Virus record (IMG/VR): IMGVR_UViG_3300045929_000104
Location: 1-50,568 of that record
DNA length: 50,568 nt
DNA from: a virus
Lineage: Duplodnaviria; Caudoviricetes
Direction: 5' to 3' (one strand)
A program made the translations under genes and the position numbers. Below are positions 31,337 through 33,679 of the stretch, piece by piece. Positions within the stretch are counted from its first letter, which is position 1. Each line of letters begins with the position of its first letter. A model generated the notes under the pieces. The model was not told where the DNA came from. It was given only the letters and a program-made list of their open reading frames with translations, and ran no database searches.

Positions 31337-32305
31337 AGGGGTTTCGAGAACTGAACGCTTTGATGTCTTGCACCTTGAGCCCGCCCGGGTTTGCGACTTC
31401 ATCGTACTTCTCCCAATTGAAACCGATCATGCCTTCCGCGGGGAAGCGGCGCCCGCCTAGCTCCATGCGCGGCACTTCCATATGCCACAATAACCATTGT
31501 AGCACGTCGGTTGCGGCGACAGTGGGGCACTCGACTAGGAACGAGTCATAGGTGCCTGTCGCGATGAATGTAACCGCGGGGGTGAACAATGCGCTGAACG
31601 GGTCGCCCATGCGCCACGTGAAGCGATCCGACGGGCCGGGGATGTCGGGGTCGTGCATGTCGATGAGGGTGCGGTACCACAGGCTCGCTCCCGACGACTG
31701 TGCAGGCTGCGATGCGAGCGCGTTCGCCCCTTTACCCTTGTTACCGGGATAGTGTCGGATACGGCCGAATGGGGTGCGGTACATGCGTTCGGCGTCTTGA
31801 ACGGCGCGCACGAACTTCATCTTGCGGGACAGCCCGCGCTTGATGCACAGCGGGCAGGTGCCGCCCTCGTCGCTGGTGTAGCCACAGCCGTGGCAGCTGT
31901 ATTCGTACAGGCCGAATACTTGATCCGCGATCTCACGCCGCCATTCGACGGTGCGGGCGTACTTCGCACGCAGCTTCGCGTCCACATCCTTGCAGAACTT
32001 GAGCGGGAGCCAGAAGGTCTGCGACATGTTCTTGGGGCCGCCGCCGTAATTCCAACGGTGGGTTTGTCGTTTGCCCGCATCATACGCCGGGCGCATCTGA
32101 CCCTTCAATGGGACGAGATGTGTTTTGGCATCAGCGGCGTCGATACCGTAGATGAGCGCCGCGTTCATACTGTGTTGCTTGGGACCGCCGGAGAGTTCGC
32201 CATCCAATTCGGCTTGTGCGACGGGATCGCACGACATAAGCGCGGTCAGGCGACCCTCGATGTTGGCCCTTACCAGTCTGCCGCTACGAAACAGCGGTCA
32301 GACAT
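31305..32305 (-). CDS. polA: DNA polymerase family A, C-terminal (palm/fingers) subunit; frame interrupted by 5 nt at 32268..32272
   Basis: SD AAAGGAGG then MSDRCFVAADW*; next frame ANIEGRLTALMSCD (motif A), GKRQTHRWNYG (motif B), RTPFGRIR, ALASQPAQSSGA, TYDSFLVE (motif C). Confidence 0.85.
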
Positions 32306-32745
32306 TAGGCACCTCCTTTCATCAACCTGTGAATGCGGAGATGCCCTCCACGAGTCACCAGAGCTAGGTTGTTTGGCTCGTTGTTGTGCTTGTTGCCGTC
32401 AATGTGGTGTACATCAAGATTACGTGGCAGGTTCGTACCGAGTAGTCGCGCGAAGGCAACACGATGTTCGTTACCACCACCACGCTTAAGGTAATTGTTG
32501 GGGTTGATCTGCTCAAGGGGTAAGCGTGGACGCCCTGCTGATGTCTTGAACATGTCGGGGTGTAGGTCTGCGCATAAGCGAGAGCAAAACCGATTACGTG
32601 CACGGTTCTTTCCACCTGGGTGGAATAATCTTCCACATCCGACACAAGACTTAGCTGGTTTCGTGAAAGCTATTGCCATACAATCCCTGCCACAGAACTT
32701 GCCTCTTGGTTTTCCGATTGGAAAACCGCAATTAGCGCACTTCAT
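32305..32745 (-). mobile_element. Free-standing HNH homing endonuclease with N-terminal Zn-finger repeats
   Basis: CxxCG...FCxxxC twice; EHRV...DVHHIDGNKHNNEPNNLALVT...H..IH; lower GC than flanks. Confidence 0.92.
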
Positions 32746-32780
32746 GCTATAGCCTCGGCACCCACAAAACAGCGGTCCAT
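32742..32780 (-). pseudogene. Orphaned original 5' end of polA-C (MDRCFVGA...), now a 12-codon leader coupled to the HNH gene
   Basis: ATG GAC CGC TGT TTT GTG GGT GCC GA versus the downstream copy ATG TCT GAC CGC TGT TTC GTA GCG GCA GAC. Confidence 0.85.
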
Positions 32781-32882
32781 CTACCTACCACCCCGCATCC
32801 GCGCAATGCCGATAGTGGCCGCGCAGTAGAAGACGGCGGCGATGGCGAGGACGCACAGTAACGCTGTGCCCGCGCCCATCAT
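32781..32882 (-). CDS. 33-aa single-TM micropeptide
   Basis: MMGAGTALLCVLAIAAVFYCAATIGIARMRGGR; start overlaps the stop of the orphan lysin end. Confidence 0.6.
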   Translation of the reverse strand: MMGAGTALLCVLAIAAVFYCAATIGIARMRGGR

Positions 32883-32914
32883 TTACGTCCCCCATACGTC
32901 ACGGAGAAATGGTT
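32879..32914 (-). pseudogene. Orphaned original 3' end of the M15 endolysin (NHFSVTYGGRK*)
   Basis: Matches the current lysin C-terminus NHMSVTYQGRQ* at protein level with different codons. Confidence 0.85.
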
Positions 32915-32915
32915 G

Positions 32916-33311
32916 TTACGCCGCAAGGGAGTCTTCCTCAATGGCATAAGGCTGACCATAGTCAGAATAGATGTGCAGTGCTTTCGCAACGGCATCTCGC
33001 CGCCTTTCGCCAAGAAAGGGCCACAGCATTAACATCCAAGTAACGGCTCTTTCTCCGTGTAATGTCAATATGTAACGGCGACGGTGCTTAGGATTCAGAC
33101 TCGGCGGTGTGCGTTCTCGTAAAAGGGCTCCTGAACCAAATAGGTGCTGCGCGCGCATTAATGTGTCTAGATCACACATTTCTATGGCAATGCGAACATA
33201 TCTACTGGCATGTCCTTTAGAGCCCGCTTTAGACTTAGAGATACCGGACACGAAACAAGCCTCTCCCTCACACAAACCGCCCAACCATGCCAATTCGGGT
33301 AGTCCACTCAT
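32916..33311 (-). mobile_element. Free-standing single-motif LAGLIDADG homing endonuclease
   Basis: ELAWLGGLCEGEACF...IEMCDLDTL...FG.G...LWPFLGERR; lower GC. Confidence 0.88.
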
Positions 33312-33679
33312 TGCCTTCCTTGATATGTAACTGACATGTGATTCCCGTCGGGCTTGGGATTACCGTTTGCGTCTTTGAAGTCACCTCCCCACCTACAAAG
33401 GGGATGTAACGACTTCCAGTACTCCCCGGCGAATCGATAGTCCTCGCTGTCACTGAGGTACACCCCATCCCGAAAGATGGCAACATCAGCTGCAAGGCTA
33501 TCAATATGCAGGCTATTGGAGATGCCCACGCCAGACAGGGCATTCTGATGCGCCACCTCGGGCTTGCGCTGTACTTCGCGGATGCGTGCGGTGATACCCG
33601 GCTGTACACGAGTCAACCACACGAGGAACTCACCGAGGAGCGCTGTGAACAACTCCTGCCGCCGCCCGAGTTCAGACAT
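33308..33679 (-). CDS. Endolysin, peptidase M15 family
   Basis: R...Q...SNSLHIDSLAADV...WGGDFKD...DGNH Zn-peptidase motifs. Confidence 0.9.
   Translation of the reverse strand: MSELGRRQELFTALLGEFLVWLTRVQPGITARIREVQRKPEVAHQNALSGVGISNSLHIDSLAADVAIFRDGVYLSDSEDYRFAGEYWKSLHPLCRWGGDFKDANGNPKPDGNHMSVTYQGRQ

Follow-up and report, generated by a model that had tools for sequence, protein, structure and literature searches.

Gene-end replacement by nuclease elements is not new in principle, being known from fungal mitochondrial mORFs, yeast WHO elements and the MobA element of phage T4. The mORF of Allomyces reportedly goes back to a 1994 paper, and the original paper on MobA is said to date from 2011. 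mORFs occur in atp6 of Allomyces macrogynus and in atp6, atp9, cox2 and nad3 of Glomus; in a conserved gene, a LAGLIDADG or GIY-YIG ORF is inserted at the 3' end, the gene is completed by a C-terminal coding piece of foreign origin, and the native C-terminus is retained downstream (PMC3630166, in part). WHO elements, found at FBA1 in Torulaspora and Lachancea yeasts, home without intron or intein; they are composed of a nuclease gene and an adjoining, resistance-conferring gene end, and the old end is displaced downstream as a fragment with a proposed role as homology arm (PMC7282813, in part). The T4 MobA element is located in topoisomerase genes 39 and 60, where an essential gene is split into two cistrons with the element's HNH gene between them. 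The element encodes the start of the downstream cistron together with a target-homologous stretch (HomR, 67-81% DNA identity); an in-phase stop at its 3' edge is followed by a non-coding gap, which blocks self-nicking, and the upstream piece bears a C-terminal tail (bioRxiv 10.1101/2022.08.31.505936, in part). Other phage genes are found in pieces, such as nrdA of Aeh1, with mobE, and, in Aeromonas phages 25 and 44RR, gene 43, which has an intercistronic sequence together with a seg nuclease. In such cases, two cistrons, split at a functionally critical region, encode an essential enzyme of replication that reassembles from its pieces, and a free-standing nuclease may occupy the gap (PMC2988022, in part). 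The seg and mob genes of T4 are free-standing, promoter-less cassettes, translationally linked to their neighbours, which cleave a conserved gene next to them and take flanking DNA along as they spread (PMC2988022, in part).

The locus described here lies on the minus strand of a 50,568-nucleotide stretch of DNA (hereafter, the window), a complete 50.6-kb phage genome with terminal repeats. On this strand, an M15_4 endolysin comes first, followed by a LAGLIDADG nuclease and a second, out-of-frame lysin end; after these come a membrane ORF of 33 aa, a 12-codon remnant of the polA-C start, an HNH nuclease and a second polA-C start. We consider it likely that this soil phage acquired, separately, two free-standing homing-endonuclease cassettes, each at the catalytic-motif codons of a gene end. 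The lysin side would then resemble the mORFs in each respect given above, and both cassettes would share with the WHO elements the homing without intron or intein, the linked gene end and the displaced old end. The polymerase side recalls MobA in its HNH gene between two cistrons, its own downstream start, its stop and gap at the 3' edge and the tail on its upstream piece, as well as the genes in pieces, and both nuclease genes are coupled to their neighbours like seg and mob. Overall, the arrangement points to end-replacement homing by free-standing phage nucleases, with a convincing case in the lysin and one that is incomplete or recoded in polA-C.

The original prediction had placed a LAGLIDADG ORF at 32916..33311 and an HNH ORF at 32305..32745, with gene-end copies beside them, and all were found there, as were the ATGA, TAATG and TAGATG junctions. 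Both nuclease genes look foreign by composition, with a GC content of 0.50 versus 0.59 for the genome (0.503 for the LAGLIDADG and 0.506 for the HNH gene) and a GC3 of 0.46 and 0.48 versus 0.71-0.75 in polA, whose composition is native-like. The Rfam scan of 31000..38200 returned no intron and no other RNA family, in keeping with nucleases that are free-standing, and a promoter and terminator scan gave nothing exceeding shuffles.

The endolysin (33308..33679, minus strand) is an intact Peptidase_M15_4 ORF of 123 aa with an HxxxxxxD motif and a final DGNH. It has 125 homologues besides the window's own protein, many with PF13539, and a weak PDB match to L-alanyl-D-glutamate endopeptidase. Residues H58, D65 and H114 were invariant in the homologue alignment; the break falls at H114 of DGNH, so that the predicted position of the breakpoint at a catalytic motif was borne out. 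The active end, NHMSVTYQGRQ plus stop (33308..33343, minus strand), and the displaced end, NHFSVTYGGRK plus stop (32879..32914, minus strand), match at 9 of 12 positions, stop included, a level reached in none of 200 shuffles of the window. A PSSM was built from the 113 homologue ends that fitted the register, out of 119 C-termini printed. It gave exactly two matches in the window, at 28.3 bits (active end) and 38.1 bits (remnant), and none in 353 kb of unrelated control loci. Most of the 119 C-termini end in DGNH[FY]S....G.K/A, and because they share this pattern, both window ends can be taken as natural lysin ends.

At the DNA level, the two lysin ends are identical at 23 of 36 nt; mORF ends likewise combine low DNA identity (63.5% in Glomus atp6) with high protein identity (PMC3630166, in part). 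GC3 falls to 0.25 over the last 12 codons of the lysin, versus about 0.75 upstream, and the start of this tract roughly coincides, in codon position, with that of the remnant, in which 6 of 11 third positions are G or C (hand count). The LAGLIDADG gene lies directly between the active, diverged end, whose stop shares an ATGA overlap with the nuclease start, and the displaced copy of the same end. The displaced copy begins at the nuclease stop codon, in a different frame, and its TGA overlaps the ATG of the 33-aa membrane ORF (orf33; 32781..32882, minus strand; taken from the ORF list), which resembles resident genes in its GC3 of 0.82 and for which no family match was found. The start of orf33 was probably coupled to the lysin stop codon originally. 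The active end was probably imported together with the LAGLIDADG gene, leaving a hybrid lysin with all invariant residues; the displaced end looks native, judging from the composition and gene coupling of just 12 codons. Since no empty-site (nuclease-free) relative was found in our data, the resident copy was identified from these two features.

The nuclease between the two ends (32916..33311, minus strand) is a free-standing, single-motif protein of 131 aa that carries the motif LAWLGGLCEGEACF. Its assignment, as first predicted, stood on evidence outside Pfam and was not reproduced by Pfam itself: no family was found at E <= 0.01, the curated LAGLIDADG model was not matched, and a PF14528 search across the genome found nothing. 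It matched I-AabMI in the PDB (E 4.8e-5, residues 4-68) and phrog_5046 (1.2e-15), and its nearest ESM-Atlas clusters are viral LAGLIDADG_1 proteins of 104-131 aa. By its helix motif and these similarities, the ORF is a predicted LAGLIDADG homing endonuclease, and the ESM-Atlas length classes suggest that the gene (GC3 0.455) is active and full length. Searches for relatives returned only two 17-residue matches in IMG/VR and only the protein itself in a word-indexed protein database. A single-sequence AlphaFold model was set aside because its mean pLDDT (52.7) was too poor.

The same architecture was observed in one of 80 other lysin loci, on an independent contig (L087), where an M15_4 lysin ends in KPDGNHYSIVHDGRA and a stop, followed by an HNH_3 gene and then by DGGHFSVSYQGRK and a stop. 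The duplication falls at the same lysin codons as in the window; the L087 nuclease is on the opposite strand and 33% identical to the window's HNH protein. A search for relatives of L087 found only itself. At another locus (L122), a related HNH gene lies directly after the lysin, and in bacterial genomes, a single lysin end was found at three of four lysin loci, the fourth (L135) giving no match. That the matches are coincidental or annotation artefacts, with no real duplication behind them, is barely credible: they are just 11-12 and 8-10 residues long, but the shuffles and control loci did not reproduce the lysin match, the copies sit exactly at the nuclease boundaries with start and stop coupling conserved, and L087 repeats the pattern. 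The lysin-end duplication claimed beforehand is therefore real.

The HNH nuclease (32305..32745, minus strand; 146 aa) matches Pfam HNH_3 (E 1.3e-11; 44.3 bits, cut-off 24.8) and fifteen PHROG families annotated as HNH endonuclease, its HNH_3 domain is preceded by CxxC/FCSxxC repeats, and it is the sole HNH_3 match in the genome. It thus qualifies as a predicted HNH_3 homing endonuclease, as had been proposed. None of 27 loci of HNH homologues adjoins polA or an M15 lysin, and no homologue of either nuclease was found beside polA.

The HNH gene lies between two polA-C starts, a mirror image of the lysin arrangement; no 5'-end case is described for mORFs in the available part of the source (PMC3630166). 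The first start, MDRCFVGAEAIA plus stop (32742..32780, minus strand; MDRCFVGA running into EAIA), directly follows orf33 (TAGATG junction) and ends in a TGA that overlaps the HNH ATG. It is homologous to polA-C only up to 32755 (..GCC GA), and no homology is seen at the left HNH junction, GCC GA / GGCTATAGC. The second start, MSDRCFVAADW plus stop (32270..32305, minus strand), has a TAATG overlap with the HNH stop, and its strong Shine-Dalgarno sequence is located inside the HNH 3' end. Its RNA may form an 11-bp hairpin (-16.2 kcal/mol, reached by none of 1000 shuffles) that ends just before the Trp codon. The word DRCFV occurs twice after an ATG in the window, 475 nt apart; exact copies of it turned up at any position in 3 of 200 shuffles. 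Both copies are true polA-C starts, since the polA-C genes of relatives start M-S-D-R-C-F-V-x-A-D-W, contiguous with ..N.EGR; that of L003 begins MSDRCFVSADWINVEGR. The breakpoint is at the Asp codon of ADW, which aligns with motif A of full-length relatives, again as predicted. The two starts are identical at 21 of 26 nt, with an 11-nt identical run (hand alignment), so that the low DNA identity claimed for both duplications holds for the lysin and not for polA-C. Composition does not distinguish the two polA-C starts.

By alignment, the polymerase is a split, two-cistron family A enzyme, broken just before motif A. The N-piece (36287..37960, minus strand), comprising the 3'-5' exonuclease and the beginning of the polymerase domain, matches Pfam DNA_pol_A_exo1, more weakly DNA_pol_A, and phrog_17 (8e-28), and ends ..ARSIIVPH, followed by an acidic tail. 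Of its 31 homologues, the closer ones are N-pieces of 324-711 aa (24 proteins), and seven are full-length proteins with only 29-31% identity; N-pieces align as ..YVPH plus acidic tail versus ..CFVAADWRNVEGR in full-length proteins. Relatives' loci were gathered from IMG/VR through the polA-N alignment, and N and C cistrons were adjacent in 13 of 13. The C-piece has 62 homologues and is closest to the C-pieces of L002/L003 (59% identical); an IMG/VR search with polA-C alone gave nothing. Two polA-C representatives, P0156 and P0161, start only beyond motif A, and the locus of P0156 was not found. As polA is split before motif A in every relative examined, the HNH gene did not split it, and the split long predates the arrival of that gene. 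MobA, by contrast, creates its split (bioRxiv 10.1101/2022.08.31.505936, in part). Gene 43 polymerase belongs to family B, unlike the family A enzyme here, and duplicated gene ends are not among the features described for genes in pieces in the available part of that source (PMC2988022).

The duplicated ends could also be by-products of illegitimate joining, that is, recombination scars with no evolved self-healing unit, which we regard as possible but rather unlikely. The donor nucleases would have been ordinary intergenic genes, situated downstream of a lysin in one case and upstream of polA-C in the other, and repair would have found homology on the gene side only, the neighbouring genes on the other side being different. 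T4 seg and mob genes are intergenic elements of this kind, which differ from the present cassettes in leaving no displaced gene-end copies (PMC2988022, in part). The left HNH junction without homology fits this explanation, as does the 3.5-kb module between the N- and C-pieces, which is unique to this phage (13-1064 nt in relatives), so that donor DNA from upstream of polA-C would have found nothing here to pair with. However, the coincidence of the low-GC3 tract with the remnant looks like the insertion of end and nuclease at a single point rather than a variable co-conversion tract, and L087 repeats the architecture at those very lysin codons. The explanation that we prefer, two acquired cassettes, differs from it only in regarding the end copy as a part of the element on which selection has acted.

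The two cassettes differ in their outcome: the lysin cassette restores an intact gene and the polA-C cassette does not. Five extra bases, TAAGG (32268..32272, minus strand), an in-phase stop plus GG, are inserted inside motif A between the Trp codon and GCC AAC ATC GAG. The TAA follows Trp11 of the second start, and the body of the C-piece (ANIEGRLTAL... to the stop; 31305..32267, minus strand) is in the -1/+2 frame relative to MSDRCFVAADW. The cassette would thus not heal the gene by ordinary translation, which contradicts the notion of a harmless insertion; the replacement gene end that had been claimed for both genes is supported for the lysin (low GC3, whole ORF, L087) and is out of frame with the body in polA-C. 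Because the first ATG of the body frame is at 32237, the motif A Asp is missing from the 310-aa ORF as called. TAAGG was absent from all 13 relative loci, which are in frame, and a degenerate pattern for a TAAGG-interrupted motif A had no match in IMG/VR.

Several ways of rescuing polA-C were considered and rejected. A -1 shift has no slippery site and would put Val-Arg inside motif A; after read-through of the TAA, a TGA closes the frame; starting elsewhere in the body frame gives a product without the Asp; and as to splicing from the first copy, that copy is in frame with the body, yet no junction restores DW. We conclude that polA-C is either inactive or dependent on non-standard decoding.

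The first alternative, to which we give slightly less than an even chance, is that polA-C is simply broken: the 5-nt insertion would stem from faulty repair or joining where the HNH nuclease cut, the C-piece would not be made, and the genotype would persist through a dispensable polymerase, a very recent break or passive replication of the element. The stop and frame break, with neither slippery sequence nor matched landing codon, agree with this, as do the lack of a body-frame start codon that includes the Asp, the in-frame state of all 13 relative loci and the position of the break, 4 nt from the breakpoint defined by the junction. On the other hand, this is the only family-A polymerase match in a complete genome, and its body frame is conserved and still open over 330 codons. 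Logan contigs of two runs (X1 and X6) span TAAGG without a difference, and those of all four runs (X1, X6, X7 and X8) carry identical pieces of the region. Words of the stretch occur in seventeen runs, each filed as a separate study, and in seven of these at least half of the words are shared; this supports propagation of the genotype only weakly because six of those are flagged as possible sources, maybe from one campaign.

No nuclease-free or TAAGG-free form was present in the contigs of X1, X6, X7 and X8, runs that are possibly source samples; such contigs cannot reveal rare variants, and nothing is concluded from this absence. A 613-nt contig that shares no more than 21 letters with 32834-32854 and 18 with 37101-37118 was treated as unrelated. 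Relatives with more than 90% protein identity were absent from the collections, the 90% clusters show no variants, and neither protein nor distant DNA searches of INPHARED phages gave a match.

The second alternative is a small-scale version of the T4 MobA/gene 60 cassette, made up of the HNH gene together with TAAGG and a polA-C start of its own, with ribosomes hopping from UGG to AGG; we hold this to be improbable, and propose it only tentatively. The 5-nt insert in the motif A codons would destroy the HNH target, protecting the carrier, and a five-base hop, perhaps aided by the stable hairpin upstream, would yield exactly ..AADW-ANIEGR... From the UGG take-off codon, AGG is the only landing codon that restores DWANIEGR; take-off and landing are unmatched, and there is no UGG nearby in the body frame. 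The MobA gap is 50 nt long with matched GGA codons, compared with 5 nt and UGG to AGG here; its parental stretch is deleted, whereas here it is kept; and its bypass is proven, whereas here bypass is a candidate reading of the sequence (bioRxiv 10.1101/2022.08.31.505936, in part). If true, it would be only the second natural family of nuclease-plus-bypass cassettes, located in a DNA polymerase active site, and the shortest programmed hop known. A frame break in the sole DNA polymerase gene, beside an HNH gene, makes a cheap and concrete test case for short-range translational bypass.

Returning to the two cassettes, we infer cleavage, immunity, the direction of transfer and the role of the remnants as follows. 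The LAGLIDADG cassette would consist of an 11-codon lysin end and the nuclease gene, inserted between ..PDG and NH.. of the endolysin; the cassette's diverged end would complete the lysin, and the resident end, displaced downstream, would persist there as a remnant that is not translated, keeping its overlap with the start of the following gene. In the HNH cassette, the nuclease gene would be preceded by a leader of 9 nt and followed by a polA-C start overlapping the nuclease stop. This cassette would have been inserted at the motif A Asp codon, at the C-cistron's 5' end, when the family-A polymerase had long been split. The resident polA-C start would stay upstream as a 12-codon mini-ORF, feeding ribosomes into the HNH gene. 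Each nuclease would cut nuclease-free alleles at these conserved codons during co-infection, repair would copy the gene end along with the nuclease, and both cassette junctions would destroy the recognition site. The predicted empty sites are ..CCCGACGGG joined to AACCATTTCTCC.. in the lysin and ..GGTGCCGA joined to CTGGGCCAAC.. in motif A. The remnant may act as a far-side homology arm, as proposed for the WHO elements, which would allow movement between mosaic phages that share just the target gene.

This scheme departs from the known systems in several respects. mORFs belong to organelle genomes rather than to a phage, replace tens to hundreds of nt versus 11 codons here, and are in several cases fused in frame to the host gene, whereas stop and start overlap here (PMC3630166, in part). 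WHO proteins are intein-derived nuclear nucleases acting in meiosis, their allele-specific cleavage has been demonstrated whereas that of the present nucleases is predicted, and they form clusters of many fragments versus one remnant per site here (PMC7282813, in part).

If this reading holds, phage nucleases share the splicing-free trick of mORFs and WHO elements, bringing their own gene end, and use it at both 3' and 5' ends with as few as 11 codons. This would explain how, with neither intron nor intein, they can enter essential phage genes at codons of catalytic motifs, and how they could move between mosaic genomes that have only the target gene in common. A short translated gene-end duplicate adjoining a nuclease gene would then be a search signature for active homing sites and recombination boundaries in viromes.

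The 50,568-bp window is a complete virus record with direct terminal repeats and was reproduced by Logan contigs from soil metagenome runs; a search of isolated phages for its relatives gave no match. Pfam families are lacking for most large ORFs, which marks the phage as very divergent. The few recognisable genes (8590..9561, 40304..41302, 42422..43291, 44185..45132, and 45910..46521) encode a capsid protein, a metallophosphoesterase, AAA_24 and AAA_25 ATPases, and a ClpP-like protease.

Between roughly 28.5 and 44 kb, every gene lies on the minus strand. On this strand, the N-piece of the split family-A DNA polymerase (polA-N, 36287..37960) is followed by a 2.6-kb stretch of small ORFs and membrane-protein ORFs (33680..36286) and then by a 123-aa endolysin (33308..33679), which ends in KPDGNHMSVTYQGRQ and a stop, and to which a 131-aa LAGLIDADG ORF (32916..33311) is joined by an ATGA overlap. 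The displaced lysin end, NHFSVTYGGRK and a stop (32879..32914), begins at the LAGLIDADG TAA in a different frame, and its stop codon (TGA) shares bases with the start ATG of orf33, a membrane ORF of 33 aa (32781..32882). Beyond a TAG-ATG junction with orf33 lies one copy of the start of the polymerase C-piece (polA-C), MDRCFVGAEAIA and a stop (32742..32780), which shares an ATGA overlap with a 146-aa HNH ORF (32305..32745); this ORF is linked by a TAATG overlap to another copy, MSDRCFVAADW and a stop (32270..32305), after which the polA-C body extends down to 31305. Within the 2.6-kb stretch lie genes for a signal-peptide protein and a multi-pass membrane protein of 331 aa, along with two zinc-ribbon ORFs and one holin-like ORF of 46 aa.

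The HNH ORF matched Pfam HNH_3 (1.3e-11); the genome contains no second match to this family. A Pfam scan of the 131-aa ORF gave no match; it matched the LAGLIDADG meganuclease I-AabMI (E 4.8e-5) and phrog_5046 (1.2e-15), and its nearest ESM-Atlas clusters were viral LAGLIDADG_1 proteins of 104-131 aa, so its length is normal for the class. The intein-borne LAGLIDADG that the original prediction placed elsewhere in the genome was not recovered: a genome search with PF14528 gave no match, and neither an intein nor a LAGLIDADG family was found in ten large ORFs scanned (eight of 384-1360 aa). Apart from the lysin's own entry, 125 homologues of it were found, many of them carrying Peptidase_M15_4; the lysin weakly matched a solved L-alanyl-D-glutamate endopeptidase. 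Residues H58, D65, and H114 were invariant in the lysin alignment; H114, in the DGNH motif, is presumably the third zinc ligand of the M15 family.

The duplicated lysin end described at the borders of the LAGLIDADG gene was confirmed. The two ends agree at 9 of 12 positions, stop included, a match that is unique in six-frame translation and was reached by none of 200 shuffles. A profile (PSSM) built from 113 homologue ends gave 28.3 bits for the active end and 38.1 bits for the displaced one, and found no match in 353 kb of unrelated loci. Since the pattern DGNH[FY]S....G.K/A terminates most of the 119 homologue C-termini listed, both copies are ordinary natural ends. For polA-C, the exact word DRCFV (found in 3 of 200 shuffles) occurs directly after ATG twice in the window, once at each edge of the HNH gene. 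The C-pieces of relatives begin alike, with MSDRCFVSADWINVEGR (L003, a relative by polA locus) or close variants, so both copies are genuine polA-C starts. The low DNA identity originally described for both pairs of copies held for the lysin ends (23/36 bases) and failed for the polA-C starts, which by hand alignment shared 21 of 26 nt, including an 11-nt identical run, and are thus not strongly recoded relative to each other.

Both nuclease genes have a GC of 0.50 and a GC3 of 0.46-0.48, versus a genome GC of 0.59 and GC3 values of 0.71-0.75 for polA and 0.82 for orf33. Lysin GC3 is about 0.75 and falls to 0.25 over the last 12 codons (NHMSVTYQGRQ and stop). The couplings to orf33 were kept by the displaced lysin end (ATGA) and the displaced polA-C start (TAG-ATG), while the second polA-C start is served by a Shine-Dalgarno sequence within the HNH 3' end. 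From composition and these couplings, the nuclease-adjacent ends look imported and the outer copies resident, a call that rests on few codons. No relatives of >90% identity were found for testing which copy was imported.

Two lysin ends were present at one (L087, 2980..4022) of 80 IMG/VR loci that carry a related lysin. Its M15_4 lysin terminates in KPDGNHYSIVHDGRA and a stop, where its 3' end is overlapped by an opposite-strand gene for a 215-aa HNH_3 protein (Pfam 1.5e-8), 33% identical to the window HNH (E 8e-10); beyond this gene lies the displaced end, DGGHFSVSYQGRK and a stop, with 14/36 bases identical between the two. In another locus (L122 191..1301), a related HNH, a 256-codon reverse-strand ORF with zinc-finger repeats, directly follows the lysin, and a doubtful, possibly decayed remnant (EDGNLFDE and stop) lies just past it. 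The layout of spare end plus remnant thus occurs beyond the window as well, and the DGNH codons of the lysin family would be a repeated nuclease target. In a third locus (L086 3340..5730), the post-lysin gene resembles a large terminase with an intein-like insert, which has Cys at its start, VHHN-T at its end, and an opposite-strand HNH-like match (3890..4123).

The idea that the HNH gene broke polA did not survive comparison with relatives. N and C cistrons were adjacent and already separate in 13/13 relative loci (10 distinct sequences). Of 31 N-piece homologues, the 24 closer ones (32-42% identical) were 324-711 aa long, and full-length polA was restricted to seven distant ones (29-31% identical). 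In an alignment of 15 homologues, the 11 closer ones terminate in YVPH plus an acidic tail, and the four full-length ones read CFVAADWRNVEGRLTA unbroken. The split is therefore old, predating the HNH, which invaded the 5' end of a pre-existing C-cistron. From N stop to opening of the C frame, relatives had -18 to 1064 nt; the two longest gaps contain accessory genes without nucleases (in L041, DUF6899, a deoxyribosyltransferase-like protein, and DUF6378), and an M15_4 lysin is absent altogether from G001, a complete relative. The window spacer has additionally acquired a 3.5-kb lysis and membrane module; with spacers of 13-1064 nt in relatives versus the 2.6-kb stretch plus lysin here, the site is an insertion hot spot. 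A family-4 uracil-DNA glycosylase domain (PF03167) with the motif GEAPG opens the N-pieces of relatives; the window polA-N N-terminus (37700..37960) aligns to this region, minus about 100 residues and GEAPG.

During co-infection, each nuclease would cut nuclease-free alleles at conserved motif codons, repair would copy the nuclease with its adjoining gene end, and the recognition sequence would be split at both new junctions. The remnant left behind may provide the homology arm on the far side, the role proposed for the displaced fragment of yeast WHO elements (PMC7282813), which would suit mosaic phages with differing neighbour genes; in a less adaptive version, homologous repair on one side may have been paired with an illegitimate join on the other. 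Splicing-free gene-end replacement is not new: the principle is established for WHO elements and for fungal mitochondrial mORFs, which possess both a native C*-terminus and an inserted C-terminus (DNA identity 63.5% in Glomus atp6; PMC3630166). Phage MobA substitutes its own HomR for a deleted stretch (bioRxiv 10.1101/2022.08.31.505936), and essential genes that are split, with a nuclease occupying the gap, have been described in phages (PMC2988022). A non-exhaustive literature search, including parts of PMC10448857, found no phage report of kept gene-end remnants flanking free-standing nucleases. Judged by sequence, the two unrelated free-standing nucleases of this phage appear to be a real, tidy example of predicted end-replacement homing, a variant rather than a new principle.

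The polA-C end was not replaced harmlessly: the original prediction overlooked a TAAGG stop and frame break after Trp. The sequence GCA GAC TGG (A-D-W) is followed by TAA GG and then by GCC AAC ATC GAG GGT CGC (ANIEGR) in the -1/+2 frame; without the five bases 32272..32268, the sequence would encode precisely the conserved DWANIEGR. Because the body frame has no ATG before 32237, the Asp of motif A is missing from the called ORF. At the same point the frame was intact in 13/13 relative loci. A 23-kb contig and a 1.9-kb contig from two sequencing runs (X1 and X6, possibly the source samples) cover the break without difference; it is no artefact of one assembly. The window polA is also the genome's sole family-A polymerase match. 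Under normal decoding, the cassette thus fails to heal the gene. PolA-C may be broken, through an imprecise junction, for instance, or faulty repair where the HNH cuts, and the damage may be tolerated or recent. Alternatively, ribosomes may bypass the break by hopping five bases across UAA, taking off at UGG and landing at AGG, which would restore motif A. A start-region hairpin (-16.2 kcal/mol) ends one base before UGG and is more stable than those of 10 relatives (-5.5 to -12.0) and 1000/1000 shuffles; however, the take-off and landing codons are mismatched, and the interrupted motif A has no further instance in IMG/VR. The layout also parallels the T4 MobA element, in which the HNH gene is followed by a start that the element itself encodes and that contains a target-homologous stretch, and whose in-phase stop and gap at the 3' edge, which blocks self-nicking, resemble TAAGG (bioRxiv 10.1101/2022.08.31.505936). 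Two C-piece proteins of relatives, P0156 (MQARLDGEL) and P0161 (MLYGIDHS), also begin after motif A, as called; they may reflect truncated calls or conceal interruptions of the same kind. Of all features of this region, the 5-nt break in polA-C is the most interesting.
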